From Acutalibacteraceae bacterium (GTDB lineage: Bacteria > Bacillota > Clostridia > Oscillospirales > Acutalibacteraceae), in assembly GCA_045538095.1 (NCBI GenBank), contig JAZSQU010000017.1, positions 6,614 through 70,613 on the forward strand: a stretch of DNA of 64,000 nt. The letters run 5' to 3'. Below, piece by piece: positions 3,501-57,676 of the stretch. Position 1 is the stretch's first letter. Each line of letters opens with the position of its first letter. Made by a program: the position numbers and the translations under genes. Under the pieces are notes generated by a model, which saw only the letters and a list, made by a program, of their open reading frames with translations, ran no database searches and had not been told where the DNA came from.

Positions 3501-4461
3501 TATATGAACCGTTATAGTAACCGGCTGCAACGGTTGTTGTTCCGCCATTGTTTGCCTTTATATAATTTACATTATATTTAGGACACTGTATGGTTACATT
3601 AGCCCATGCGCTGGAAACACCACCGTAATAAGTCTGAATCTGGTAAATAATTTTGCCATCTGACGAATTTGCCGGAAGATTGTATTGAACCTCATGATTG
3701 ATAATCATCTGAAGTGTTCCCACACCGCTTGAGACTGATGGATTAAATCCGATAACACCTGAATATCCTGTTGCAGTATTGTTATAAATTCTGTAGGTAT
3801 ATCCGATATCTCTGTTTACCGGAAGCTTAACGCCATACTGGTCATAAAGTGTAGATGAAGTTGTTTTTGTTACAGTACTTGTTGAACCCACTTCCGGAGC
3901 TGTAAAGCTCATAGCTGCAGGTGTAGAAAGTGTAGTACCGGTAGGTACTGTCCAATTTGCATTATATGATGCTCCCCACGCGCTATCATTATAAGTGAGT
4001 CGTCTTTCACTATTTGCAGTCCATGTTCCTTCAGACAGAGCAGTAAGATTACCTATTTTTATTGAATGAAGCTTTCCCTTCCATTTGATAGCACAAGGCC
4101 AACCATTAACAGGACCTGTTTCTGCGCTTGTATCGGAACTTAACCTTCTTGTGCTATCATCTGCCGTTTTAAAAGTATATGTACCATCTGAATATGCACC
4201 GAATGAGTTTACAAGAACATATTCGTCCGTAACTGAGGTATTAATTGAACCGTCAGCATTGATCGGATGATACTGGATTATAACATGTCCCGAACCTGTG
4301 TCTGTCACCTTAACTTCAACATGATAGGATGCATATGATGTAACACTTGGTTGGTCCACAGCAGCGTTAGCCTCTGTAGGAGCCACCCACACCCAACAGG
4401 ACATAATCATCAGCACTGATAAAAACACTGATAAGGCTTTTTTGAAATTTGTTTTTTTCAT
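1..4461 (-). CDS. Large secreted cysteine-rich repeat protein (N-terminal ~1487 codons; C-terminus lies beyond the window start)
   Basis: Missing from the ORF track because there is no stop in the window. Hand translation from ATG 4461 is open to base 1. An in-frame alternative ATG at 4473 abuts the RBS. TAAGGAG RBS at 4474-4480. N-terminus MKKTNFKKALSVFLSVLMIMSCWVWVAPTEANA is a signal peptide. A ~330-aa unique domain follows, then many H-T-x-ATCTxxG-x-CxxC(G/N) modules. Confidence 0.85.
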   Translation of the reverse strand, partial: MKKTNFKKALSVFLSVLMIMSCWVWVAPTEANAAVDQPSVTSYASYHVEVKVTDTGSGHVIIQYHPINADGSINTSVTDEYVLVNSFGAYSDGTYTFKTADDSTRRLSSDTSAETGPVNGWPCAIKWKGKLHSIKIGNLTALSEGTWTANSERRLTYNDSAWGASYNANWTVPTGTTLSTPAAMSFTAPEVGSTSTVTKTTSSTLYDQYGVKLPVNRDIGYTYRIYNNTATGYSGVIGFNPSVSSGVGTLQMIINHEVQYNLPANSSDGKIIYQIQTYYGGVSSAWANVTIQCPKYNVNYIKANNGGTTTVAAGYYNGSYTTSASPTANTVTKSNGAGVNDTHTVYTWPAAEKYTITGHKTVNEIATNYAHTWDNGVINPDSTCTSEGTKTYTCTGCGQTRTEEVAQLAHTEEVIPAVAATCTKTGLTEGKKCSVCGTITVAQTVTAKLAHTEVIDEAVAATCTKTGLTEGKHCSVCNTVTVAQEVVPMAEHTPGAEATCTAPQSCTVCGVELVAQIAHTPGAEATCTTPQTCTICGTELESAKGHTPGAAATCEAPQTCTVCGEVLAAQLAHTEELVPGKAATCTETGLTDGKKCSVCGTILVAQETTPTIDHNLGDWITDKEPTCVTPGSKHKDCANCAYTTTETIPATGKHVYGDWAQFNAGTTHRRTCTADALCSAYEEEAHNFNGAVRQIDGGNYHDYKCEKCEAYGVGTTMNIKEACFGEGTAFAQIDGNATQHKETCKCGREQNDGHTYGAWAADPKNTTDNQGKMSRVCSECSYKQTTSCTYTVTDTEPATCTEDGYKTWECKDCGNGYSEILKATDHTEGEAVEENRKESTCTVAGSYESVVYCSVCNEKLSSETVDLPLADHTPAEAVEENIKESTCTVAGSYDSVVYCSVCNEKLSSETVELPLADHTPAEAVEENRKESSCTVAGSYDSVVYCSVCNEKLSSETVELPLAEHTEGEAVEENRTESSCTVAGSYDSVVYCSKCNAELDRDTVALPLAAHTEGEAVEENRKESSCTVAGSYESVVYCSVCNEKLSSETIDLPLADHTPAEAVEENRKKSSCTVAGSYDSVVYCSVCNEKLSSETVELPLAEHTEGEAVEENIKESTCTVAGSYDLVVYCSKCNAELNRDTIDLPLAEHNWGNATCDAPATCTVCGTTTGGILGHDYTVYVETIDYTCTTDGYDIYKCSRCDEITHKNLTVAAHTLTQVEAKEPTCGAPGWEAYEYCSKCDYTTKIEKPATGNHIYDYAQNADGETHTGTCTCGATTSEACSGGTATCVAKAICEKCETAWGEKDADNHTGTANVVKGKVDATCTAGGYTGDTYWSCCDALETKGTTTAINADAHTSTETYVDGYVAPTCTTEGATGDTKYKCCNAVKVASTVISVDADAHTGTATVIKKQKDATCTAGGYTGDIHWSCCDALKTKGTTTAIDADAHTSTETYVDGYAAPTCTTEGATGDTKYKCCNAVKVASTVISV
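1073..2040 (-). repeat. Seven copies of a 138-bp (46-codon) in-frame tandem repeat inside the giant CDS
   Basis: Anchor word gaacagta recurs at 1073, 1211, 1349, 1487, 1625, 1763 and 1901, an exact 138-bp period. Unit translates as ESTCTVAGSYDSVVYCSVCNEKLSSETVELPLADHTPAEAVEENRK. Confidence 0.9.
2590..3260 (-). repeat. Shorter degenerate Cys-motif modules (~27 and ~40 aa) inside the giant CDS
   Basis: Translation gives successive AHTPGAEATCTAPQSCTVCGVELVAQI-type units and AHTEEVIPAVAATCTKTGLTEGKKCSVCGTITVAQ-type units. Confidence 0.7.
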
Positions 4462-4660
4462 TTTAAATACCATCTCCTTATTAGGATTTGCTCTGACCGG
4501 GTTTTGTCCGTCAGAACTGTGATTTTTTTGTTTTTCCGTATCCTGCCTCAAGGTGAAAACATCTGTCTGCACAACTGACCTCCCTGTGCTTTATATCAGA
4601 ATTCTTTCGCCCCGGGCAAAGCTGACCGATATATACAATATCGGCAATTATACATATTAT

Positions 4661-4689
4661 ATTATAATACATCACTCGCAAATAGTCAA
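4661..4689 (-). promoter_or_regulatory. Sigma-A-type promoter for the giant secreted protein gene
   Basis: Minus strand reads TTGACT, 17 nt, TATAAT (-35 at 4684-4689, -10 at 4661-4666). This implies a ~190-nt 5' UTR containing hairpins. Confidence 0.55.
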
Positions 4690-5044
4690 TATTTACCGAG
4701 CAAAATCCACAAAATCAGTAAATTTTATTTACTTTTTATATGTAAAGCGATTCATATAAATTGTCCCTCTTTAATTTTTGTAAAAACTTCCGGTTCGATA
4801 TTTTCAAACAGAAAACTCTGTGCTGTTCGGCAAAAACCTTAACCGTGACTGTTTCGGTTATCTTCAGGTTCGTCATCATCGCCTGCTATGAAATAATAGT
4901 CACCTATCAATTCATACTTAAACCTGTACATTCATCTGTAATGTATTCTGATAAATTCATATTTTTATCCTCATATCTTATTGACTTATGATATTTGCAA
5001 TTGTATAATTTATTTGGAACAAACAATTTGAAAGGAATGAAAAT

Positions 5045-6527
5045 ATGAACCCACTTTTTTCTTATCACGAAAAGAATCGGAAACAAAGGTTGCAAATGAC
5101 CGTTTGCTTTCCTACGGATTAGGTCTCACCGGTCAGAATATGACCTGTAGCTTTGTTGCAAGCAGATTATTTGTTTATCTTAATACTATTCTCAAAATAC
5201 CTGCCGAAAAAACAGGTATCATCACGGGTGTAAGCACCATGTGGGATGCCATAAATGACCCCATTGTCGGCGGACTTATTGACCGCAGACGCCACAAGCC
5301 CGGCTATAAGCTGCGTCCTTTCCTTCTGTGGACACCTCCCATTATCGCTGTTATTGTATTTATGATGTTCCTTGACTTCGGTTTAACTCAAGGTCAGACC
5401 ATACTCTTAACCCTTATTTTATTCCTTCTTTACGATACATTCTTTTCTCTTCAGGATATCTCAATATGGGGTATGGCCGCTTTATCAAGTCCCGATTCGG
5501 TCGAACGCGGACGAGTTATTCAGTGGATTTCAATTCTTGCAGGCTTTGGTGCTACAATCAGCGGTCTTTTCCCGACCTTCAAGGATATGGTTGTAAAAAA
5601 TGAAATAATGAGTGAAAAACCTCTTACGCCTGGGGCGCTTTTATCTTTGGCGTTGGCGGTATGCTCATAGCAATGCTTGCTTACCGCATGAAAGAAAAGG
5701 TTGAGCCTGCTGAGCCCGAAAACAAGACAAGTATATTAAAGGACATCGCAGACCTGAGACATAACAGAACACTCATAATTGTTTGTCTTGCGAGAATCGT
5801 GCAAAGCATTTCCCTTTCTCTTCCCTGGGAATACTTCTTTGAATCACAAGGTGTTGCCTATAAAGTGTTCGGCACTGAAATTTCAGGCGGTACTGCTCAG
5901 GTTATATATGGCACTGTTCTGGGAATTCCCGGTGCGATTGCAGTGTTCTTTACAACCAAGATTATCAGCCGTATCGGCGGCAATAAAAATCTCCTTGTTT
6001 TCTCTGAAGCAATCACTCTTGTCGCACGTATAATCGCTTTCTATGTGGGTGCAAACGACCGTTTCCTTAATGTAGGTGCTATTTTGGCAGTAATAGCCCT
6101 TCTCAGCATAACTCAGATATTCGCAAATATGAAGGACATTGCACACCGTGCGCTTCTGTCAAACTCCATCGATGAAACCGAGCTTGAAACCGGCAAGCGT
6201 ACAGAAGGTATTGTTTTCTCAATGCAAAACTTTGTTTCAAAGCTCATAAGTGCTGTTCCCAAATTCATTCAGGGCTATGTGCTTAAGTACCTTGGCTTCG
6301 ACCAGAATATCAAGCACGCGGCAAATCAAACCGTTATCAATGCACAGGTCGCTCCTCTTTTCCTCAAATACCGTTGGCATCTGTTCATTCTCGGCCCTGC
6401 AATCGGTTCAGCTCTTTATCTTATAGTTATCCTTTTCCTTAAAGATGATAAAGAACATATAGCAAAAGTTGAAAAACTGCTTAAGGAAAAAAGAGCTGCG
6501 GCTCAAGCTGAAGATGTAACTGTATAA
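5045..6527 (+). pseudogene. GPH-family (MelB/YicJ-like) glycoside-pentoside-hexuronide:cation symporter, interrupted by two frameshifts
   Basis: ORFs 5104-5670 and 5661-6527 are two halves of one transporter (motif DAINDPIVGGLIDRR; paralog of 47488-49011). The ATG at 5045 is in a third frame. The shifts map to a T-run (5054-5060) and an A-run (5614-5619). Confidence 0.7.
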
Positions 6528-45523: not shown

Positions 45524-45652
45524 ATGTTCAATCATATTGACTGGAATGCTTTCATGCAGGTATGGGACGAATTCCTTAAGTTTATGGATACAGTTATTGA
45601 ATGGCTTATGTTTGTTCTTGCAGACGGCCCCAAGCCCGGCGAAGGATTATAA
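45524..45652 (+). CDS. Small peptide S1 (42 aa), amphipathic and Trp/Phe-rich
   Basis: AAAGGAG RBS 8 nt upstream. MFNHIDWNAFMQVWDEFLKFMDTVIEWLMFVLADGPKPGEGL. Below the ORF-track cutoff. Confidence 0.6.
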   Translation: MFNHIDWNAFMQVWDEFLKFMDTVIEWLMFVLADGPKPGEGL

Positions 45653-45672: not shown

Positions 45673-45786
45673 ATGTTTGGTTCAAACGATGCTGAAACCA
45701 TGAATCTGATTTACAGGCTCTATATGATTCTTTCAAGAGCTGCAACTGCTTGGTTTAAATTTATTCAGGCTCTCTACAATTCATAA
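45673..45786 (+). CDS. Small peptide S2 (37 aa)
   Basis: AAAGGAG RBS 8 nt upstream. MFGSNDAETMNLIYRLYMILSRAATAWFKFIQALYNS. Confidence 0.6.
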   Translation: MFGSNDAETMNLIYRLYMILSRAATAWFKFIQALYNS

Positions 45787-50237: not shown

Positions 50238-53200
50238 TTATTCTTCTGATTTGTCCGATGAAATTTTACCTACAAACTCCTTAAGCACTTCAACGGGTGG
50301 TTTTCCGCCGAGCTTAAGAGTAATGTACGGACTTGTTTTTGCGGCGCTTATCATTGCTCTGCCTCTGAAGTGCTGACCGATTGCGGCAACAACCTCAGGC
50401 TTCAGCTCGTTTATAAATATGAGAAGCACCGTATTCTGCTGCTTGATTTCGTAAATGCCAAGCTTTGCTGCGTTGCTTCTCAGAAGTGCAACATCAACAA
50501 GACCCTGAACTGCTGCAGGCGGCTCACCGAAACGGTCAATGAATTCGTCCATAACATCCATAGCATCCTCACCGTTTTCAATTTCGGCAATTCGCTTATA
50601 CATATTAATTCTGTTTTTCACCGAATCAATGTAGGTTTCAGGAATGTGGGCATCTATAGCCACATCAATAAGGCACTCTTTTTTCGGCTTGAATTCCTCA
50701 CCTGTCTTCTCTTCCTCAATTGTTTCAGAGAGGATTTTCAGGTACATATCGTAGCCCACAGCCTCCATATGTCCGTGCTGCTGAGCACCGAGCACATTGC
50801 CTGCACCTCTTATCTCAAGGTCACGCATAGCAATACGGAAGCCTGAACCGAACTCTGTAAATTCTCTGATAGCCGAAAGTCTGCGCTGTGCAATTTCGCT
50901 GACCTCTTTACGGTTGTTATAGGTGAAATAGGCAAAAGCACGTCTTGATGAACGGCCGACTCTGCCTCGTATCTGATGAAGCTGAGCAAGACCGAGACGG
51001 TCTGCGTCCTCGATTATAAGGGTATTTGCATTTGGCACATCAACACCCGTTTCGATAATGGTTGTGCAGACGAGAATATCAATTTCGCCCTCAAGAAGTT
51101 GTCGCCACACCTCGCTAAGTTCCTCTTCGCTCATTTTGCCGTGACCTAAACCGATTCGTGCATCAGGGAGAAATTCCTTGATTTTAGCCGCAGTTTTTTC
51201 AATGGTATCCACTCTGTTATGGAGATAGTAAACCTGACCGCCGCGTCGAAGCTCTCTTTCCATTGCCTCAGCAAGCACGCTCATATCCTGAGCTACCACG
51301 TAGGTCTGTACGGGGTGTCTGCCTACAGGAGGAATTTCAAGAGAGGACATATCACGGATACCCGTCATAGCCATATTGAGAGTACGTGGAATGGGGGTTG
51401 CTGAAAGGGTAAGCACGTCAACAAGAGGGAATTTTTCCTTCAGCTTTTCTTTCTGTGCAACGCCGAAGCGCTGTTCCTCGTCTACAATAAGCAGACCTAA
51501 ATCCTTGAACTCCACTGTTTTTGCGATAATGGAGTGAGTACCAACGATAATATCGATACTGCCTCGCTTGAGGGCTTTTTTAATTTCTGTACGTTCCTTC
51601 TGTGTGCGGAAACGTGAGAGCATTTCAATTTCCACAGGGAAACCGTCAAAGCGCATTTTGATTGTCTGATAATGCTGAAAAGCGAGGATTGTTGTAGGCA
51701 CAAGAATTGCACACTGCTTTCCGTCTGCAATACACTTGAAAGCAGCACGCAGGGCAACCTCTGTTTTGCCGAAGCCTACATCACCGCAGAGAAGTCGGTC
51801 CATGGGACTGCTTCTTTCCATATCGGACTTGATTTCGTTAATCGCTATAAGCTGGTCGTCGGTTTCTTCAAACTCAAAGCGGCGCTCAAAGTCACTTTGC
51901 ATATCCATATCAGGCGAAAACGCATAACCCTTTGAGTTAATTCTTGCCGAATATATTTTAGTAAGCTGAGCCGCCATATCCTTTACGGCGGTGCGGACTT
52001 TTTTCTGTGTATTCTTCCATTCGTCTGAGCCGAGTCTACTGAGTTTGATTGTCTTATCCGTATCACCTGGTGAAACATACTTTGCAAGAAGGTCAAGCTG
52101 AGTTACGGGAAGGTAAAGCACATCAGCTCCACGGAAGTTAATTTTGATATAATCTTTGATTTTGCCTGCAACATTCATAGTCTTTATGCCATCAAAAACA
52201 CCGATACCGTGAACTGCATGAACAACATAATCGCCCTTGGTAATCTCTTCAAGAGAGGTAAGTCCCCTGCCCGTTTTGAATTTTCGCTGAGTCTTTTTCT
52301 GCGGTTTGGGAGTCGCTCTGCCGTAAGTAAAGAGCATAAACTTCTCAGAGGCATATTCAATACCGCCTGAAACACTGCCCGGATTTACGGACACGGTTTT
52401 TTCAGGGAATTCTGCAGGCACAATGGGGAAAAACCTTGATTTTATTCCCTCGGTTTCAAGGTCAAAGGCAAGTTCCTTCGCACTTTTTTCCGTACCTGCC
52501 ATAACTACAACGGTGTAACCTAATCTCTGTGCAGGCTCCAAATCTTCAAGAAGATAGGACAACGTGCCGTCCCAGCGGGAAGTCTGCTGTGCAGTTACAC
52601 TGACAAGATTTTTAACGGGCACATCAAATGAGCCACGGGCAAGATTATCAATAAAAACCGTTCTTCCGCCACTGTATTCCGAAAGCACCTCGTTCCAGGT
52701 AAGGGCAAAGGTGTCAAGTCCTTTTGTTAAAAGCCCATCCTCAAAGGCAGCACGGATATCCTCAAGAAGAAGCTGAGATGTAGTTGTGAATTTCTGTTTT
52801 ACATTGCTGCTTTCTGAAACAAAAAAGAGTTTGCCTTCCATATATTCAAAAACGGATGCGACGCCCTCATACGCAAGGGAAAGATAACGGTCAGGTGACG
52901 CAATATGCATAAAATGGCTGAGACGCTCAATGTCCTCATTTATTGACGCTTTGACCTTTACACTGCCCTTTCCTTTGACAGTAGGCAGAAATTCTTCAAG
53001 CTTTTTCTTCATTTCTTCGGGAGAGTCAAAAAGAATTTCCGTTGCAGGAGTTATGTCGATTTCGCTGAGTATTTCTGTTCTGCGCTGAGTTTCAAGGTCG
53101 AAAAGGGAAATAGAATCCACACTGTCGCCCCAGAATTCCACACGGCAAGGTGCAGAATGACCCGGTGCAAAAATGTCGAGAATGCCACCGCGAAGAGAGA

Positions 53201-53714
53201 ACTGACCCACACCGTCCACCTGCTCAGTTCGGACATAGCCTGCACTGATAAGCAGTTTTATAATGGCATGGGTGGAAATCTCGGTTTCTGTTGTAAGCTT
53301 CAGAATGTGCTTTTTAAGCTCTTCAGGCGGAATTGTAAGCTGGATTGCCGCCTCGATTGAGCATACTATATAATTGTAGTCACCGTCGAGAATACGGCAG
53401 AGTACACCAAGTCGCTTCTGCTCAAAGTCAAGAGATTTACTGTCCGTCTGACGGAAATTGAAATCACGGGCGGGATAGTGATACGCCCCTTCAGAAAAAA
53501 CATTCAGGTCTTCCGTAAGCTTTACTGCCGAAGCTTCATCAGGGCAGATTATGAGTGCCTTTTCGTCCATATCTTCAACGATAGAGGAGATATAATGAGC
53601 TTTATGCACCTGAGAAAGACCGATTACACCCATAGGAAGTGCACCGGTTTTTACGGCGTTTTTCACCGAAGAATATTCAATTGACTTTGAAAGAACAGCT
53701 GAAAAACCTGACAC
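50238..53714 (-). CDS. mfd: Transcription-repair coupling factor
   Basis: Mfd domains throughout (CarD-like domain, DEAD/DEEQRFG helicase, TRG motif). Start placed at GTG 53714, 8 nt after AGAGAGG. The 53774 start runs through the promoter. Confidence 0.9.
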   Translation of the reverse strand: MSGFSAVLSKSIEYSSVKNAVKTGALPMGVIGLSQVHKAHYISSIVEDMDEKALIICPDEASAVKLTEDLNVFSEGAYHYPARDFNFRQTDSKSLDFEQKRLGVLCRILDGDYNYIVCSIEAAIQLTIPPEELKKHILKLTTETEISTHAIIKLLISAGYVRTEQVDGVGQFSLRGGILDIFAPGHSAPCRVEFWGDSVDSISLFDLETQRRTEILSEIDITPATEILFDSPEEMKKKLEEFLPTVKGKGSVKVKASINEDIERLSHFMHIASPDRYLSLAYEGVASVFEYMEGKLFFVSESSNVKQKFTTTSQLLLEDIRAAFEDGLLTKGLDTFALTWNEVLSEYSGGRTVFIDNLARGSFDVPVKNLVSVTAQQTSRWDGTLSYLLEDLEPAQRLGYTVVVMAGTEKSAKELAFDLETEGIKSRFFPIVPAEFPEKTVSVNPGSVSGGIEYASEKFMLFTYGRATPKPQKKTQRKFKTGRGLTSLEEITKGDYVVHAVHGIGVFDGIKTMNVAGKIKDYIKINFRGADVLYLPVTQLDLLAKYVSPGDTDKTIKLSRLGSDEWKNTQKKVRTAVKDMAAQLTKIYSARINSKGYAFSPDMDMQSDFERRFEFEETDDQLIAINEIKSDMERSSPMDRLLCGDVGFGKTEVALRAAFKCIADGKQCAILVPTTILAFQHYQTIKMRFDGFPVEIEMLSRFRTQKERTEIKKALKRGSIDIIVGTHSIIAKTVEFKDLGLLIVDEEQRFGVAQKEKLKEKFPLVDVLTLSATPIPRTLNMAMTGIRDMSSLEIPPVGRHPVQTYVVAQDMSVLAEAMERELRRGGQVYYLHNRVDTIEKTAAKIKEFLPDARIGLGHGKMSEEELSEVWRQLLEGEIDILVCTTIIETGVDVPNANTLIIEDADRLGLAQLHQIRGRVGRSSRRAFAYFTYNNRKEVSEIAQRRLSAIREFTEFGSGFRIAMRDLEIRGAGNVLGAQQHGHMEAVGYDMYLKILSETIEEEKTGEEFKPKKECLIDVAIDAHIPETYIDSVKNRINMYKRIAEIENGEDAMDVMDEFIDRFGEPPAAVQGLVDVALLRSNAAKLGIYEIKQQNTVLLIFINELKPEVVAAIGQHFRGRAMISAAKTSPYITLKLGGKPPVEVLKEFVGKISSDKSEE

Positions 53715-53751: not shown

Positions 53752-53781
53752 ATTATATATCCAAAAATAACCAAAAGTCAA
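53752..53781 (-). promoter_or_regulatory. Probable mfd promoter
   Basis: Minus strand reads TTGACT (53776-53781), 18 nt, TATAAT (53752-53757). Confidence 0.5.
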
Positions 53782-53814: not shown

Positions 53815-53833
53815 GGCTTAAGCTTTAATTAAC

Positions 53834-53941
53834 TTATGCTTCTTCCTTCTTGAAAACTGAGAAAAGTTCCTCGAGCCAACCGAAGATTTCTGTAAGAAGA
53901 GCCTTTACTTCGTCAAGGATTGCCTTTACATCTGCTGCCAT
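53834..53941 (-). CDS. Small peptide P1 (35 aa)
   Basis: GGGAGG RBS 9 nt upstream. MAADVKAILDEVKALLTEIFGWLEELFSVFKKEEA. Confidence 0.65.
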   Translation of the reverse strand: MAADVKAILDEVKALLTEIFGWLEELFSVFKKEEA

Positions 53942-53977
53942 TGTGTTTTACCTCCCTCTTTAAATTTTTACAAATAC

Positions 53978-54006
53978 ATTATATACTATCCTTTAAGAAA
54001 AATCAA
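53978..54006 (-). promoter_or_regulatory. P1 promoter
   Basis: TTGATT (54001-54006), 17 nt, TATAAT (53978-53983) on the minus strand. Confidence 0.6.
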
Positions 54007-54037
54007 TACTTGTGTATATTTTTTAAAATTTTTATCT

Positions 54038-54068
54038 AAAAAAATAACTGCTCCCTGAAGGAGCAGTT
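54038..54068 (-). terminator. Terminator of P2
   Basis: Arms aactgctcc and ggagcagtt, with U7 on the minus strand. Confidence 0.8.
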
Positions 54069-54076
54069 GACATTCA

Positions 54077-54175
54077 TTATTCAGCAGCGAGAACGCCTGC
54101 TTTTGTAAGAATATCGATTACAAGATCATAGATTTTTGTGAAAAATTCTGTGATGAATGTGAAGAACTGTTCCAT
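54077..54175 (-). CDS. Small peptide P2 (32 aa)
   Basis: GGAGG RBS 9 nt upstream. MEQFFTFITEFFTKIYDLVIDILTKAGVLAAE. Confidence 0.65.
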   Translation of the reverse strand: MEQFFTFITEFFTKIYDLVIDILTKAGVLAAE

Positions 54176-54226
54176 TATCCGCTACCTCCGTTTAGATTTT
54201 TGATAAGGTGTTCACCTTTCGTTTAC

Positions 54227-54255
54227 AGTATACATCATAAAATGATAAAAATCAA
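54227..54255 (-). promoter_or_regulatory. P2 promoter
   Basis: TTGATT, 17 nt, TATACT. Leader hairpin aaggtg/cacctt. Confidence 0.55.
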
Positions 54256-54281
54256 TAGTTTATGACGAAATGCAACATTTT

Positions 54282-54431
54282 TTATTCTTTTGTACCAAAG
54301 AGTTCATCCCACTTTGCAGCAGCAAGGAAGGGAGCAAGAATAGCGTAGAGAGCCTTGAACGCTTTCATAAGACCGTCAAAGAAGCCCTGCTTATCTGTGC
54401 CGAAAAGCTCGTATACGTAATCCATAATCAT
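54282..54431 (-). CDS. Small peptide P3 (49 aa)
   Basis: AGGAGGTG RBS 8 nt upstream. MIMDYVYELFGTDKQGFFDGLMKAFKALYAILAPFLAAAKWDELFGTKE. Confidence 0.65.
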   Translation of the reverse strand: MIMDYVYELFGTDKQGFFDGLMKAFKALYAILAPFLAAAKWDELFGTKE

Positions 54432-54466
54432 AGTTCTCACCTCCTGAGTTCGTTCTCTGTTTTGAA

Positions 54467-54495
54467 ATTATATCTCAATTTTGAAAATAAATCAA
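54467..54495 (-). promoter_or_regulatory. P3 promoter
   Basis: TTGATT, 17 nt, TATAAT on the minus strand. Confidence 0.6.
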
Positions 54496-54557
54496 TAGTA
54501 TATACAAAAATCTCATATACTTTTCACTTTTTTAATAATATCGAATGCCTATTAAAC

Positions 54558-54578
54558 AAAAAAGAGCCCAAAGGCTCC
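54558..54578 (-). terminator. Weak terminator of P4
   Basis: Arms gagcc and ggctc with a 4-nt loop, plus U6 on the minus strand. Confidence 0.5.
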
Positions 54579-54600
54579 TTTTCATTTAGTTGAATTTTGA

Positions 54601-54726
54601 TTATTCAGCGTCAGCGCCAAATTCGTCAACCTTGCCCATGATCTTTTCTACAAGAGCAAAGATAGCGTCAACAACCTTTTCGATGTTTTCGATGAATGTC
54701 ATTACATCTGCAAAGAAGTTTTCCAT
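54601..54726 (-). CDS. Small peptide P4 (41 aa)
   Basis: AGGAGG RBS 9 nt upstream. MENFFADVMTFIENIEKVVDAIFALVEKIMGKVDEFGADAE. Confidence 0.65.
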   Translation of the reverse strand: MENFFADVMTFIENIEKVVDAIFALVEKIMGKVDEFGADAE

Positions 54727-54775
54727 TACTTTACGCCTCCTATTTTTGTGATTTACCTTTTAAAGGTTCAGCTTA

Positions 54776-54804
54776 ATTATATACTAAGGCTTTAATAAAA
54801 TCAA
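54776..54804 (-). promoter_or_regulatory. P4 promoter
   Basis: TTGATT, 17 nt, TATAAT on the minus strand. Confidence 0.6.
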
Positions 54805-54824
54805 GAGTTTTCTTAAAATTTTTT

Positions 54825-54858
54825 AAAAAATTAAGAACTGCCGGTAAGCAGCTCTTAA
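54825..54858 (-). terminator. Terminator of P5
   Basis: Arms ttaagaactgc and gcagctcttaa (one mismatch), plus U6 on the minus strand. Confidence 0.65.
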
Positions 54859-54866
54859 ATAATTTC

Positions 54867-54959
54867 TTATTTGAAATAAGTGTTGATCCAATCCATAAGA
54901 CTGTTATACATAAGGGTAACAATTGCGATAAGTTCAGCGATAAGATCTGTAAGTACCAT
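54867..54959 (-). CDS. Small peptide P5 (30 aa)
   Basis: AAGGAG RBS 8 nt upstream. MVLTDLIAELIAIVTLMYNSLMDWINTYFK. Confidence 0.65.
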   Translation of the reverse strand: MVLTDLIAELIAIVTLMYNSLMDWINTYFK

Positions 54960-55012
54960 TTCAGTTTCTCCTTTTCTCTAAATTTTGTTGTTCAAGTATG
55001 AACGTTGGCATA

Positions 55013-55041
55013 ATTATACACCAAGGATTTTAAAATTTCAA
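55013..55041 (-). promoter_or_regulatory. P5 promoter
   Basis: TTGAAA, 17 nt, TATAAT on the minus strand. Confidence 0.6.
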
Positions 55042-55147
55042 GGGAAAGAAAAAATTTTTAATTATTATATGAAAAAAATTGTAACTGTATTAACTCAGGA
55101 AACGGCATTCTATTGTCTGATGCTGTGTAGTTGCTTTCAGCTGTAAG

Positions 55148-55182
55148 CAAAAACGGTACCACCCGTCAGGACAGTACCGTTT
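55148..55182 (-). terminator. Terminator of the P8-P7-P6 unit
   Basis: Arms aaacggtac and gtaccgttt with a 14-nt loop, plus a U-run on the minus strand. Confidence 0.6.
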
Positions 55183-55286
55183 TATGAAAATTATTGAATT
55201 TCTTTTTATCAACTTCAATTATGTAACCGATTCTGAGAAATTTTAGAATTTCATTGATGATACCGACTACAATCACAAAAATCCAT
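55166..55286 (-). pseudogene. P6: frameshifted or degenerate paralog of P7
   Basis: ATG 55286 gives only 11 codons. Shifting one base in the T5 run (55277-55281) reads MDF-VIVVGIINEILKFLRIGYIIEVDKKKFN..., which aligns with P7. No good SD. Confidence 0.5.
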
Positions 55287-55316
55287 TATACGTTTTTCCT
55301 GTAAAGTAAAACTTAA

Positions 55317-55424
55317 TTAAACAACGTCCTGCTCTACAAACTTGAGCTCGTAATCGATTCCAAGCATTTTTAAAACTTCGTTGATAAGACCTACAACGAA
55401 AGCGATAACATCATTCATATCCAT
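55317..55424 (-). CDS. Small peptide P7 (35 aa)
   Basis: GAGGAG RBS 8 nt upstream. MDMNDVIAFVVGLINEVLKMLGIDYELKFVEQDVV. Confidence 0.65.
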   Translation of the reverse strand: MDMNDVIAFVVGLINEVLKMLGIDYELKFVEQDVV

Positions 55425-55460
55425 TGTTATTTCTCCTCTTGATACTGAACTTTTTAAGAC

Positions 55461-55541
55461 TTACATTAAGCCTTCTTTTTTCATAATAGCTTCGATAATA
55501 TCAAAAATTCTTCCGGTAATAAAAGTTAAAAATCCCCACAT
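55461..55541 (-). CDS. Small peptide P8 (26 aa; 29 aa if started at ATG 55550)
   Basis: AAGGAG ends 9 nt before ATG 55541. MWGFLTFITGRIFDIIEAIMKKEGLM. Confidence 0.55.
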   Translation of the reverse strand: MWGFLTFITGRIFDIIEAIMKKEGLM

Positions 55542-55594
55542 ATTTGTCATCTCCTTTATTTTTTTGTTATCGGATTCATCACCGATACAATTTT

Positions 55595-55623
55595 ATTTTA
55601 CACTACAATTAACAATAAATCAA
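55595..55623 (-). promoter_or_regulatory. P8 promoter
   Basis: TTGATT, 17 nt, TAAAAT. Leader hairpin tatcgg/ccgata. Confidence 0.55.
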
Positions 55624-55650
55624 GTGGGTTAACTGTTTTTTAAAACTAAT

Positions 55651-55681
55651 AAAACAAAACCGCAAACCTTACGGTTTGCGG
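55651..55681 (-). terminator. Terminator of P9
   Basis: Arms ccgcaaacc and ggtttgcgg with loop ttac, plus a U-run on the minus strand. A second perfect hairpin aagttattt/aaataactt lies at 55684-55705. Confidence 0.8.
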
Positions 55682-55712
55682 TATAAGTTATTTGCAAATA
55701 ACTTAACTGAAA

Positions 55713-55856
55713 TTAGCCAACATAATCGAGACCTTCGTCTTTAGCAACGATGTTGAAGATTTCAGCAAGAATAACTGTGAGAAGATCAATGAAAGCAGCT
55801 GCCTTGTCTTCTGCATTAATAAGTGCTTCAATCTTGCCCTTAATACGATCAAACAT
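55713..55856 (-). CDS. Small peptide P9 (47 aa)
   Basis: AAGGAGG RBS 8 nt upstream. MFDRIKGKIEALINAEDKAAAFIDLLTVILAEIFNIVAKDEGLDYVG. Confidence 0.65.
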   Translation of the reverse strand: MFDRIKGKIEALINAEDKAAAFIDLLTVILAEIFNIVAKDEGLDYVG

Positions 55857-55876
55857 TATAGTATCCTCCTTATTAG

Positions 55877-55905
55877 ATTTTAGTAATGTAAATTTGACAA
55901 TTCAA
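55877..55905 (-). promoter_or_regulatory. Possible internal promoter for P9
   Basis: TTGAAT, 17 nt, TAAAAT within the 55-nt P10-P9 spacer. Confidence 0.4.
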
Positions 55906-55911
55906 ACAAAC

Positions 55912-56046
55912 TTATTTGATGAGGTTTGCGAACTCATCTTCGATTTCTGTGCCTACTTCCTTTTCGAAAATAGCCTTAACAAAAGCGATGATTTCGTCGA
56001 TAAGGTTGTAGATAGCGCTCTTTACAGCAGCTGTAAGATTATCCAT
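55912..56046 (-). CDS. Small peptide P10 (44 aa)
   Basis: GGAAGGAGG RBS 9 nt upstream. MDNLTAAVKSAIYNLIDEIIAFVKAIFEKEVGTEIEDEFANLIK. Confidence 0.65.
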   Translation of the reverse strand: MDNLTAAVKSAIYNLIDEIIAFVKAIFEKEVGTEIEDEFANLIK

Positions 56047-56128
56047 TGTGTAAGTCCTCCTTCCTCAATATTTGTTTATGGGATAAACCCAATAACATAC
56101 TAAAAAATAAAAGTGTCACTAGACAATC

Positions 56129-56269
56129 TTATTTAATGATGCCTACAACATCATCATAAGCGTCCTTAAGTTCGTCTTCTACTTCTGTGCCAACTTCTTT
56201 GTCCCAGATTGCTCTGATGAAAGCGATGATGTCAGCAAAGAGCTTTTCGAAAAATGCCTTAATATCCAT
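56129..56269 (-). CDS. Small peptide P11 (46 aa)
   Basis: AAGGAGG RBS 9 nt upstream. MDIKAFFEKLFADIIAFIRAIWDKEVGTEVEDELKDAYDDVVGIIK. Confidence 0.7.
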   Translation of the reverse strand: MDIKAFFEKLFADIIAFIRAIWDKEVGTEVEDELKDAYDDVVGIIK

Positions 56270-56326
56270 TGTACAAGTCCTCCTTTATAAATTTGCGTGA
56301 GGTACACACTCCTCTAACATAGATAC

Positions 56327-56355
56327 ATTATATAATAAGCAAAATTGTTTGTCAA
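56327..56355 (-). promoter_or_regulatory. P11 promoter (perfect consensus)
   Basis: TTGACA (56350-56355), 17 nt, TATAAT (56327-56332). Leader hairpin gagg/cctc. Confidence 0.7.
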
Positions 56356-56420
56356 TAGTTAATTCAAAAAAAGTTCATCAATTAACACGATTTCTTTATA
56401 AATTTTAATAAATTCATATT

Positions 56421-56454
56421 AAAGAAAAATAACGCACAGTTTTCTGTGCGTTAT
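56421..56454 (-). terminator. Terminator of P12
   Basis: 11-bp stem ataacgcacag/ctgtgcgttat with loop tttt, plus a U-run on the minus strand. Confidence 0.85.
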
Positions 56455-56552
56455 CACTTTGTTTCAATTGTGTCTCTTCTTAGCCGATAACGGGTACAAA
56501 GTAGACAAAGAAGAAACCGGGTATGCTGGCCTAAAAACTCAATAAGATAACC

Positions 56553-56693
56553 TTATTTTGTGCTGTCAAGAATGTTATCGTATGCATCCTTGAGTTCGTC
56601 TTCTACTTCTGAGCCAACTTCTCTATCCCAGATTGCTCTGATGAAAGCGATGATGTCAGCAAAGAGCTTTTCGAAAAATGCCTTAATATCCAT
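56553..56693 (-). CDS. Small peptide P12 (46 aa), close paralog of P11
   Basis: GGGAGG RBS 8 nt upstream. MDIKAFFEKLFADIIAFIRAIWDREVGSEVEDELKDAYDNILDSTK. Its first 23 aa are identical to P11. Confidence 0.7.
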   Translation of the reverse strand: MDIKAFFEKLFADIIAFIRAIWDREVGSEVEDELKDAYDNILDSTK

Positions 56694-56747
56694 TGTATAA
56701 TCCTCCCTTTAAAATTTATCTGAGGAAAAACCCTCTTGCGACTTCCG

Positions 56748-56776
56748 ATTATATATCAGAAATACATTTCTGTCAA
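56748..56776 (-). promoter_or_regulatory. P12 promoter (perfect consensus)
   Basis: TTGACA (56771-56776), 17 nt, TATAAT (56748-56753). Confidence 0.7.
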
Positions 56777-56842
56777 TAGTTTATTCAGAACAGCCCGATA
56801 AATAGCACTTTTTTAATAAAACTTAATAAATCTGAAATAAAC

Positions 56843-56874
56843 AAAAAAATAACACACAGCGAACTGTGCGTTAT
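56843..56874 (-). terminator. Terminator of the P14-P13 unit
   Basis: Arms ataacacacag and ctgtgcgttat (one G-U pair), plus U7. Homologous to the P12 terminator. Confidence 0.8.
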
Positions 56875-56888
56875 CAGGTTGAATTAAA

Positions 56889-56984
56889 TTATGCCTCTTC
56901 CTCTTCGTCAAGACCAATGAGGGGTCTGAGGTAAGCAAACATAAAGTCGAGTAGTCTGTTGATGATGTCGATAAGTTTCTGCAT
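56889..56984 (-). CDS. Small peptide P13 (31 aa)
   Basis: GGAGG RBS 9 nt upstream. MQKLIDIINRLLDFMFAYLRPLIGLDEEEEA. Starts 18 nt after the P14 stop. Confidence 0.65.
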   Translation of the reverse strand: MQKLIDIINRLLDFMFAYLRPLIGLDEEEEA

Positions 56985-57002
56985 AATAAATTACCTCCGT
57001 TA

Positions 57003-57110
57003 TTAGTTAACTTCGTTCTTGAGTTCATTGATGAATTTTTCAAGAATTTCATCAATGAAAGCGATAATTCTCATAAAAATAGCTTCGAACTGAGCCTTGA
57101 AATCTTCCAT
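57003..57110 (-). CDS. Small peptide P14 (35 aa)
   Basis: AAGGAG RBS 8 nt upstream. MEDFKAQFEAIFMRIIAFIDEILEKFINELKNEVN. Confidence 0.65.
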   Translation of the reverse strand: MEDFKAQFEAIFMRIIAFIDEILEKFINELKNEVN

Positions 57111-57154
57111 TGTGTTTTCTCCTTTCTGTATTTTATACAAAACTCTATAATGCT

Positions 57155-57182
57155 ATTATACACAAAATTAAAATAAAATCAA
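57155..57182 (-). promoter_or_regulatory. P14 promoter
   Basis: TTGATT, 16 nt, TATAAT on the minus strand. Confidence 0.55.
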
Positions 57183-57202
57183 TAGTTTTAAATTTATTTA
57201 AT

Positions 57203-57234
57203 AAAAAAAGTGCCACAAGCAAAAGCTTGTGGCA
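57203..57234 (-). terminator. Terminator of the P16-P15 unit
   Basis: Arms tgccacaagc and gcttgtggca with loop aaaa, plus U7 on the minus strand. Confidence 0.85.
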
Positions 57235-57247
57235 AAATTCAATTAAC

Positions 57248-57370
57248 TTATGCTTCGATACCGAGCTGCTTGTAAATGAATGCGAAGAGTTCCTTGAGGC
57301 CTTCTACGAAAGCGTCAACAAAAGCCTGGAAGTTGCCTTCTTTAATGTTGTTGATGATATTTGTAATCAT
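57248..57370 (-). CDS. Small peptide P15 (40 aa)
   Basis: AAGGAGG RBS 8 nt upstream. MITNIINNIKEGNFQAFVDAFVEGLKELFAFIYKQLGIEA. Confidence 0.65.
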   Translation of the reverse strand: MITNIINNIKEGNFQAFVDAFVEGLKELFAFIYKQLGIEA

Positions 57371-57412
57371 TGCGTTTTCCTCCTTGTTAGAATTAAATTT
57401 TAAAAAATCAAA

Positions 57413-57523
57413 TTAGAAGTTGAGATTAGCTTCGATCATGTTCTTAAGATATTCAGCAAGTGTGTCGAAGAACTTAAGAATTTCTGCCCAAAGATTGTCA
57501 AAGTTAAGGCTGATGTTTTCCAT
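57413..57523 (-). CDS. Small peptide P16 (36 aa)
   Basis: AAGGAGG RBS 8 nt upstream. MENISLNFDNLWAEILKFFDTLAEYLKNMIEANLNF. Confidence 0.65.
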   Translation of the reverse strand: MENISLNFDNLWAEILKFFDTLAEYLKNMIEANLNF

Positions 57524-57573
57524 TACGATATCCTCCTTTTTATATTTTAGGGACATCCCCCTAAGTTGATTAC

Positions 57574-57602
57574 ATTATATATCAGTATAAATGATTTGTC
57601 AA
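57574..57602 (-). promoter_or_regulatory. P16 promoter (perfect consensus)
   Basis: TTGACA (57597-57602), 17 nt, TATAAT (57574-57579). Leader hairpin ttaggg/ccctaa. Confidence 0.7.
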
Positions 57603-57676
57603 TAGTTAATTCAAAAAATATTCATTTAATTTTATAAGTTGTGTGTAATGTGCGTGAAACGGCCTTCCAAATAAAT

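Follow-up and report, generated by a model that had tools for sequence, protein, structure and literature searches.

Phenol-soluble modulins (PSMs) of staphylococci, namely PSM-alpha, PSM-beta and delta-toxin, are leaderless peptides of about 20-45 amino acids (aa). Each of them forms one amphipathic helix, their genes lie in small multi-gene loci that are strongly expressed, and the beta-type peptides are net acidic. Leaderless class II bacteriocins such as aureocin A70/A53, enterocin L50 and lacticin Q are also small and helical and are sometimes encoded in multi-peptide loci; they are strongly cationic, and ABC exporter and immunity genes are linked to them. Tandem micro-genes with their own promoters are found in type I toxin arrays (ibs/sib, ldr, Fst, AapA). 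Here we analyse a locus that resembles each of these systems in some respects. It lies in a stretch of 64,000 nucleotides (nt), called the window below, from an uncultured Acutalibacteraceae bacterium (Oscillospirales) of the ruminant gut (GenBank assembly GCA_045538095.1, contig JAZSQU010000017.1, positions 6,614 to 70,613 of the forward strand), and it consists of 15 intact micro-genes and one decayed copy on the minus strand at 53826-57610, upstream of mfd. The micro-genes, numbered P1 to P16, encode peptides predicted to be acidic amphipathic helices, and the array has very probably grown in place by tandem expansion.

The array peptides share with PSMs the lack of a leader, the size, the single predicted amphipathic helix, the multi-gene arrangement and strong expression (predicted here from expression signals), and they share with the beta-type a net acidic charge. 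By analogy, self-assembly and surfactant or membrane activity would be a plausible common mode of action. A comparison with PSMs and delta-lysin had already been drawn in an earlier reading of the DNA (the sequence-only reading). It holds as an analogy but not as kinship; no PSM or delta-lysin model of Pfam-A matched P1-P5, P7-P16 or two core peptides of the wider family described below at E<=10. The array also differs from PSM loci in that its host belongs to the strictly anaerobic gut Clostridia, and in that it has 15 cassettes, most of which carry their own promoter and terminator. Furthermore, no Pmt-like exporter was found among 41 window open reading frames (ORFs) of at least 120 aa, which were picked as likely genes and scanned against Pfam; in staphylococci, too, pmt lies apart from the psm genes. 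An Agr-type direct-repeat operator was not visible in a promoter line-up made without a formal motif search, which showed sigma-A hexamers, an A/T tract and the string 'aacta'. The peptide array is real, and it is undescribed in the literature searched: full-text search for PSM-like systems in Clostridia, anionic leaderless peptide arrays and the peptide motifs found no description.

The micro-gene array and its coding status

The 15 intact micro-genes are ORFs of 26-49 codons that start with ATG and are preceded by a Shine-Dalgarno sequence (SD) of the form AAGGA, GGAGG, AGGAGG or GAGG. All 16 minus-strand ORFs listed in the sequence-only reading were located, and its claim that 15 of them have an SD and ATG was borne out. 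P6, the exception, is a decayed copy, and the number of genes is thus 15 rather than 16. These genes are below the usual annotation cut-offs, and the ORF track supplied with the DNA shows the region as empty or covered by antisense artefacts. The guanine-cytosine (GC) content is 32-33% in the array and about 43% in the flanks. When ORFs of 26-60 codons with ATG and an SD-like sequence (AAGGA, GGAG, GAGG, GGAGG or AGGAGG) 5-17 nt upstream were counted, the array strand had 15 and the opposite strand had 0, compared with 0.52 +/- 0.69 (maximum 3) in 500 dinucleotide-preserving shuffles.

Comparison with related loci (designated by L numbers) revealed purifying selection. Reading frames are intact between the window and these loci. 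The ratio of nonsynonymous to synonymous substitution rates (dN/dS), pooled by the Nei-Gojobori method over orthologous array loci, was 0.19, 0.18 and 0.15 for the window against L010, L015 and L002, respectively, and 0.12-0.35 in all eight locus pairs. Between the window and L010 (434 codons), there were 112 synonymous differences at 251 sites and 124 nonsynonymous differences at 1051 sites, which departs from the neutral ratio of about 1:4 with a binomial p=1e-22. In the same pair, Mfd has a dN of 0.046 and a dN/dS of 0.05, and the peptides have a dN of 0.129; purifying selection on the peptides is weaker than on Mfd. The sequence-only reading had named frame-breaking indels, a dN/dS near 1 and a match to a well-described family as evidence that would count against it. 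Instead, frames are kept, dN/dS is 0.15-0.19 for the three loci named above, and no such match was found in the libraries searched. Besides the Pfam scan, ten peptides were compared with NCBIfam without a family match, and PHROGs and PADLOC returned nothing significant for the peptides.

An alternative explanation is that the frames arose by chance in AT-rich DNA that is intergenic or encodes non-coding RNA. The GC content of only 32% and the very short ORFs are in line with it. The 15 ORFs on one strand, compared with about 0.5 in shuffles and 0 on the opposite strand, the low dN/dS with kept frames, and several hundred homologous small ORFs elsewhere contradict it, and it is effectively refuted. 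An RNA element was also rejected, as Rfam gave nothing at the gathering score in the whole window; within the array there were only sub-threshold terminator-like matches. On this comparative evidence, the array ORFs are protein-coding genes.

The genes, all on the minus strand, are described here in the order of transcription. P16 (57413-57523) encodes a peptide of 36 aa, MENISLNFDNLWAEILKFFDTLAEYLKNMIEANLNF, behind the SD AAGGAGGA and ATG; it has orthologues in L010 and L015 and matches the core profile of the wider family at E=1.5e-6 without having been in its training set. P15 (57248-57370, 40 aa, SD and ATG) is 80% identical in aa to its L010 orthologue, with a dN of 0.11 and a dS of 0.43. 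P14 (57003-57110, 35 aa) also has an SD and ATG and was included in the core-family alignment A4. P13 (56889-56984, 31 aa) has the SD GGAGG, ATG and an acidic tail, EEEEA; aa identity to its orthologues is 81%, with 12.5 synonymous and 8.5 nonsynonymous differences. P12 (56553-56693) and P11 (56129-56269), both of 46 aa, are recent paralogues joined by a 173-nt direct repeat of 86% identity at 424-nt spacing. The P12 peptide is identical in L001 and L002 (1 synonymous difference), and P11 has 9 homologues of 45-47 aa in a database of 5.8 billion proteins. P10 (55912-56046, 44 aa) was placed in the P11/P12 subfamily by phmmer clustering. P9 (55713-55856, 47 aa, SD and ATG) has orthologues in L010 and L015. 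P8 (55461-55541, 26 aa, SD and ATG) has a net charge of 0 and orthologues in 14 loci. P7 (55317-55424, 35 aa, SD and ATG) differs from its L010 counterpart by 16 synonymous and 9 nonsynonymous changes.

P6 (55166-55287) is a frameshifted sequence of the P7 type with a GTG start and a weak SD. A start at about 55287, ATG-GAT-TTT, meets a stop after 11 codons, and the GTG frame at 55166-55276 still encodes the P7-like sequence VVGIINEILKFLRIGY. Because of these two features P6 looks like a decayed duplicate of the P7 type; L010 has no counterpart of it. P5 (54867-54959, 30 aa) is the most hydrophobic peptide and highly conserved: the exact peptide is encoded in at least 9 places on related contigs (L001-L009), and the comparison with L002 gives 9 synonymous and 0 nonsynonymous differences. 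P4 (54601-54726, 41 aa, SD AGGAGG and ATG) has a net charge of -7, and its phmmer cluster takes in core peptides of the sister clade. P3 (54282-54431, 49 aa), which is also highly conserved, differs from its orthologues by 10-11 synonymous and 2 nonsynonymous changes; its cluster at 90% identity has 20 members from Clostridia metagenome-assembled genomes, annotated only as 'hypothetical protein'. P2 (54077-54175, 32 aa) evolves fast, with orthologues of 50-59% aa identity and a dN of about 0.29. P1 (53834-53941, 35 aa), with the SD GAGGGAGG and ATG, has an orthologue of 74% identity in L002.

The expression signals of the array form a repeated design. A consensus scan found ten sigma-A-type promoters on the minus strand, located before P16 (57574-57602), P14 (57155-57182), P12 (56748-56776), P11 (56327-56355), P8 (55595-55623), P5 (55013-55041), P4 (54776-54804), P3 (54467-54495), P2 (54227-54255) and P1 (53978-54006). 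Three of them are perfect TTGACA-17-TATAAT sequences (12/12) and the rest match at 9-11 of 12 positions. Promoter-like sites numbered 34 against 18 +/- 4.6 expected, with the surplus on the minus strand. Every array promoter has an A/T-rich upstream tract, in most of them 'aacta' stands immediately 5' of the -35 hexamer, and the promoter regions make up the direct-repeat families D2, D3 and D5. Intrinsic terminators on the same strand follow P15 (57211-57234), P13 (56848-56875), P12 (56428-56455), P9 (55659-55682), P6 (55152-55167), P5 (54831-54858), P4 (54564-54577), P2 (54046-54068) and P1 (53791-53814). These are 9 of 14 terminator-like sites, compared with 2.1 +/- 1.6 in shuffles. The same scan found no terminator between P11 and P10 and none after P3. 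The earlier map of transcription units is thus correct in essence, apart from P3, which has no terminator of its own. In total there are about 10 cassettes composed of an A/T-rich tract, a near-consensus sigma-A promoter, a 5' untranslated region (UTR) of 30-50 nt, a strong SD, an ORF and an intrinsic terminator. This design suggests constitutive high output, as would suit a product needed in bulk.

Folding of the 5' UTRs showed short hairpins directly past the predicted transcription start in about 7 of 10 cassettes (57560-57530, 56740-56700, 56320-56290, 55590-55565, 55000-54985, 54765-54750 and 54220-54205, minus strand). Most SDs are unpaired; in the minimum-energy folds of P16 and P12, a CCTC/CCCT stretch pairs with the SD. 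The hairpins could be 5' stabilisers or translational switches. Tandem small ORFs with 5' UTR hairpins and own promoters are typical of type I toxin-antitoxin systems, in which small membrane toxins are held by antisense RNAs. The array departs from them in several ways: its peptides are acidic without Lys-rich tails, they have no uncharged run of more than 13 residues and so no membrane span, the strong SDs are mostly exposed, and Rfam has no match. No plus-strand promoter of more than 9/12 lies within the array, and the lone 10/12 plus-strand site, at 57710, is outside it; strong promoters for antisense RNAs are thus missing on the opposite strand. We consider a type I toxin-antitoxin function highly improbable.

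Origin of the array and the wider peptide family

A look-up of P5 and a P11 homologue identified 15 related metagenome loci, mostly from ruminant gut, which have 12-14 small genes in the same place upstream of mfd; orthologous arrays are found in L001-L015 and L040. An Mfd scan of one genome per GTDB species gave 79 loci, all from uncultured Clostridia, mostly Acutalibacteraceae or Oscillospiraceae, of ruminant, human and other animal guts. Where the N-terminus of Mfd is at least 87% identical to that of the window, the region upstream of mfd measures 3.4-3.8 kb and holds 12-14 SD-ATG micro-genes. It is mostly 0.6-1.2 kb long with 1-3 micro-genes in the next clade (overall Mfd identity 72-76%), in which a few loci have none. 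In most of the more distant relatives, a gene on the same strand abuts mfd. Five such genes were examined, and all of them have the signature GLGNPGxxYxxTRHNxGF, which we take to be that of peptidyl-tRNA hydrolase (Pth). This agrees with the statement in the sequence-only reading that pth often sits upstream of mfd in Firmicutes, as Pth abuts mfd in more distant Oscillospirales. The view that the array is an accessory insertion was not upheld, because sister species already carry 1-3 family members at the same spot; other lineages have single copies.

These comparisons indicate that the array is very probably an in-situ, lineage-specific tandem expansion that proceeded by duplication of whole cassettes followed by divergence. 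Low GC is common to the orthologous arrays, and it therefore fits short AT-rich genes with their regulatory DNA rather than foreign origin. Evolution of the locus is fast and uneven. L040, in which Mfd is 95% identical, has only 3 peptides at 50% identity or more, and L013 is a mosaic of L001-type and L010-type cassettes. Such cassette turnover is as expected for stoichiometric or antagonistic effectors. Thus, in spite of their missing annotation, these micro-genes are under purifying selection, have some of the strongest expression signals of the window and have grown from 1-3 to 15 copies. As a separate observation, some but not all strains have a gene with a DUF559 domain (endonuclease-like) inside the array, where it separates the P7-type cassette from that of P5 (L001 3833-4141, L003 1532-1840, L004 3272-3700).

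The micro-genes also belong to a wider family. The exact array peptides are present in a public protein collection, where only the P3 type has a name, 'hypothetical protein [Clostridia bacterium]'. In the sister clade, the consensus is xxWIKxNWAEIVAFFDKLYxIIKxIL followed by an acidic tail. A core profile was made from the sister-clade family together with P10-P12 and P14 (alignment A4). It retrieved 253 clusters from 5.8 billion proteins, and the best 120, at E<2e-8, are 29-62 aa long; none of the 253 has a Pfam domain or an informative name, all being 'hypothetical protein' or unnamed. In 1.84 billion proteins clustered at 50% identity, 42 representatives were found. A scan of metagenome contigs with the family alignment gave 4 loci, which are too short to show gene context. 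P16 matches the core profile, and P10, P11, P12 and P14 are built into it, so that these are members of the family (29-48 aa). When orthologue groups were compared by hhalign, whose scores may be inflated for short amphipathic helices, the links were CORE-P4 99.4%, CORE-P16 95%, P10-P14 95%, P2-P4 95%, P2-P8 93%, P1-P10 77% and P9-P10 69%. We therefore hold with high confidence, jointly with the in-situ expansion, that at least 10 of the 15 peptides tie to a peptide family of Oscillospirales gut bacteria which is older than the array and has no annotation. With its roughly 250 clusters, this family is a well-defined, testable target for small-protein research, whether its members act outside or inside the cell.

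Single-copy members occur in several contexts: between glmS and mfd without phage genes nearby (L182), after a DivIVA-like gene (L175) and after a formate-tetrahydrofolate ligase (FTHFS) gene (L177). In the core motif, W is invariant, and NWAxIVAFFDK is invariant in one subfamily.

Predicted structure and candidate functions of the peptides

The sequence-only reading had described the peptides as acidic, Cys-free amphipathic helices, and had proposed hydrophobic-moment calculation and structure prediction as checks. Charge, isoelectric point (pI), hydrophobic moment, periodicity and AlphaFold2 all agree with this description. Cys is absent from every peptide. The net charge is -2 to -7, apart from P8 (0) and the decayed P6 (+3), and the pI is 4.1-4.8, or 5.9 in P8. 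Hydrophobic residues (AVILMFWY) account for 50-67% of each peptide. The 18-residue hydrophobic moment is 0.43-0.65, mostly 1.5-3.5 standard deviations over shuffles, and the hydrophobic periodicity has its maximum at 94-106 degrees in 14 of 15 peptides. Acidic residues are found at positions 2-5, and position 2 is in most cases occupied by D, E, I, Q, F or W. Uncharged runs reach at most 13 residues, and therefore none of the peptides is expected to be transmembrane. Hand inspection of the core consensus showed hydrophobic residues at 4 of 7 positions and a narrow, mostly acidic charged stripe. AlphaFold2 with the family alignment predicted a 36-aa core peptide as a single helix at residues 3-35, with a mean predicted local distance difference test (pLDDT) score of 93.6; for P11 (mean pLDDT 72.9), it predicted a helix at 3-25, a loop at EVGTE and a second helix at 31-45.

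These properties and the expression design lead us to favour, tentatively and at somewhat less than an even chance, the explanation that the peptides are abundant, leaderless, Met-retaining helices that self-assemble or bind membranes or interfaces, similar to PSM-beta and delta-toxin in kind and without kinship to them. The abundance, localisation, target and activity of the peptides would then be as follows. They would be made constitutively and in large amounts, would keep their initiator Met, and each would fold into one amphipathic helix. The helices would act stoichiometrically, either by self-assembly into bundles or fibrils or by binding to membranes or interfaces, and the array would represent a diversified set of surfactant-like or membrane-active peptides. 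Release may occur through an unlinked exporter or by cell lysis. Should the peptides prove to be abundant and released, strictly anaerobic gut Clostridia would have a convergent counterpart of staphylococcal PSMs, which would matter for the biology of membranes and surfaces, for competition and for sensing by the host. On the last point, formylated amphipathic helices are the preferred ligands of the formyl-peptide receptor FPR2, according to a preprint (bioRxiv 10.1101/2024.05.07.592932).

Two resemblances to other proteins bear on a membrane role. Among the 42 representatives, the only protein longer than 62 aa is P0161, a metagenomic phage tape measure protein of 725 aa (PhageMin_Tail, TMP_3). 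Its residues 440-585 comprise four 39-aa tandem repeats with I(R/K)xNWxxIVxFFxxLFxxIV in the amphipathic part. The match to the core profile sums to 45 bits (E=6e-7 in the 1.84 billion proteins), while single repeats reach just 6-15 bits. Repeats and peptides thus have in common an amphipathic helix with I(K/R)xNWxxIV(A/x)FF and then L/I-F/Y; they differ in that the peptides are free-standing 30-aa chromosomal genes and the repeats are part of a tail protein of at least 600 aa. This one match could be due to shared descent or to convergence. In addition, a profile search of the PDB returned the 9-residue NWGRIVAFF of Bcl-2/Bcl-xL at a non-significant E of about 0.2-0.4. NWGRIVAF(F), found in the family core, for example at L076 9005-9100 (MENIFNWILDNWGRIVAFVDKLFEILSEALD), is the same as the BH1 / helix alpha-5 motif of Bcl-2/Bcl-xL, which is probably convergence of helices with similar roles, or chance. 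Tape measure segments and Bcl-2 alpha-5 are amphipathic helices thought to enter membranes, and the two resemblances therefore favour, circumstantially and weakly, a role at membranes or interfaces.

Several observations weigh against the PSM-like explanation. Their anionic character speaks against electrostatic attraction to bacterial membranes, the usual route of attack. The Pfam scan of the 41 window ORFs detected no ABC transporter, peptidase C39, radical-SAM or lanthionine enzyme, in agreement with the earlier statement that the window holds no modification enzyme, immunity gene or ABC exporter. Likewise, no exporter, immunity or regulator gene was found among these window ORFs, and none is conserved beside the single-copy family members. 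P3, P5, P7, P13 and P15 could not be linked to the family by hhalign (<30%). Finally, judged from the alignments, the conservation of the core looks more like that of a specific protein-protein interface than like generic amphipathicity.

Some of these observations also bear on antimicrobial functions. Small leaderless peptides from a strain-variable, multi-paralogue locus with strong promoters might form a multi-peptide leaderless bacteriocin system that kills competitors. The pI of 4.1-5.9, compared to the strongly cationic known leaderless bacteriocins, speaks against this, as does the absence of ABC transporter and immunity genes from the window and from the orthologous loci and the lack of any bacteriocin family match in Pfam and NCBIfam. 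We consider such a system improbable. Lanthipeptides, sactipeptides and bacteriocins with a GG leader were rejected, since Cys and a leader are absent and the window contains neither a modification enzyme nor a C39 transporter. The sequence-only reading had set aside these classes and the cationic leaderless bacteriocins, and the composition of the peptides, their pI of about 4 and the missing partner genes bear this out.

The interface-like core conservation leads to another explanation, that the peptides are intracellular micro-protein modulators. A helix would dock on a conserved partner, for example RNA polymerase, an enzyme complex or a membrane protein, and tune its activity; where partners are paralogous or variable, the array would provide matching variants. 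Conservation of the core motif is strong even across species with Mfd only 50-75% identical to that of the window, dN/dS is low, no exporter was found in the window scans, and single-copy members stand amid the housekeeping genes glmS, mfd and FTHFS. Furthermore, the pth-mfd slot of Bacillus is occupied by Fin, a small RNA polymerase-binding anti-sigma factor. However, regulators do not usually come as 15 cassettes that each have a strong promoter of their own, sequences turn over rapidly between near-identical hosts, and no recurrent neighbour hints at a partner. The precedent of Fin does not extend to the sequence either: a Fin (YabK) homologue was rejected, as the peptides share the position but have no Cys, zinc-ribbon motif or Pfam match and no homology to Fin. 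On balance, we regard modulators as rather unlikely, though as the likeliest of the alternatives. If the peptides act inside the cell or against phage, they would constitute a new micro-protein family with natural variation to exploit.

The neighbouring head operon and other features of the window

The array lies between mfd and an operon of phage-type head genes. The gene for the transcription-repair coupling factor, mfd, is located at 50238-53714 on the minus strand and has its own promoter at 53752-53781 (11/12 match); in orthologous loci, Mfd has the Pfam families UvrB_inter, CarD_TRCF_RID, DEAD, Helicase_C and TRCF. The head operon runs from about 57954 on the plus strand and extends past the window end at 64000. 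It comprises genes for TerS, TerL, portal, a 327-aa protein and capsid and 3 connector-like genes, of which Terminase_6N, Phage_portal and Phage_capsid_4 were recognised by Pfam and TerS by tblastn.

A TerS-TerL-portal-scaffold-capsid operon of Faecalibacterium prausnitzii, FpGTA I, has been described as a gene transfer agent (GTA), and DNA packaging of the GTA type has been reported across Ruminococcaceae and Oscillospiraceae (PMC12946183). The head operon resembles FpGTA I in having TerS, TerL, portal, scaffold-like, capsid and small conserved genes, no integrase and a location on an Oscillospirales chromosome, a likeness in gene content. It differs in its size of about 6.5 kb and in having no visible tail or lysis genes. 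More than 20 related loci (among them L010 2174-8631, L016-L019, L024, L025, L034, L040-L042, L076, L090 and L184-L186) have the operon in synteny next to the peptides and mfd; TerL is 70-76% identical in those with an Mfd identity of 72-76%. The head block of L010 is nine genes long and faces the gene of a host fn3-domain protein; integrase, tail and lysis genes were not seen in it. Synteny across species and divergence of TerL in step with Mfd suggest a vertically inherited, domesticated GTA-like operon rather than a prophage, and the phage head module of the sequence-only reading is accordingly better seen in this way. The operon may be an undescribed GTA of Acutalibacteraceae.

The neighbourhood raises the question of a phage- or GTA-related role, in which the peptides would mimic tape measure repeats and poison either assembly or the membrane channel of incoming phage (superinfection exclusion) or would serve the GTA-like operon, for example in lysis or release. 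The match of the core profile to the four repeats of P0161 is in favour of this role. The array and the sister-clade copies divergently adjoin TerS of the conserved head operon, and conflict genes typically diversify and vary in copy number, as the array does. In L022, L023 and L031, the head block is downstream of mfd and one family peptide is still beside TerS (L022 13576-13674, L023 11256-11339, L031 13590-13679), an arrangement explained by inversion of mfd alone. On the other side, a single tape measure protein was matched, with its weak individual repeats, and the peptides contain no holin-like transmembrane segment. Obligatory linkage to the operon was rejected, since members occur without it in L001, L182, L175 and L177.

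Viral sequences speak against this role as well. In 80 viral loci with TerL relatives, no family peptide and no large ORF matching the profile was found. When IMG/VR was scanned for patterns of the family alignment, 47 matches came up and 0 were confirmed. In 50,697 phage records, a core peptide had tblastn matches to SPbeta-like phages only, at E=2. PADLOC and PHROGs were blank, as noted above. Typical phage cargo was rejected on the first two of these searches, which also weaken the earlier suggestion of phage morons. Taken together, we judge a phage or GTA role to be quite unlikely, and its special form is still less probable: we think it very unlikely that the peptides are host decoys which copy the repeat helix, co-assemble with the tape measure protein of an incoming phage or with GTA proteins, and block tail assembly or the DNA-injection channel. 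If they are decoys, the array would amount to a diverse collection of them and to a so far undescribed kind of anti-phage defence.

The ORFs of the window otherwise include housekeeping genes, spoIIR, sugar-type MFS carriers and phage-like genes. A second pair of SD-ATG micro-ORFs is located on the plus strand at 45524-45652 and 45673-45786. The two peptides, of 42 and 37 aa, are Trp-rich and amphipathic, and the pair adjoins a 309-aa protein without a Pfam match. Small genes of the same size are found at the syntenic position in L001 (13677-13943), and a pair resembling this one lies upstream of mfd in L067 (6006-6319). The pair does not match the core profile (E=23-28), so that homology to the array is not detectable; it is possibly related to the array. 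Elsewhere, at 2568-5104, there are 2.5 kb with fragmentary ORFs only, and directly beyond them an MFS_2 transporter gene is split into overlapping ORFs at 5104-5670 and 5661-6527, which points to pseudogenes or to frameshifts in the assembly at 2568-6527.

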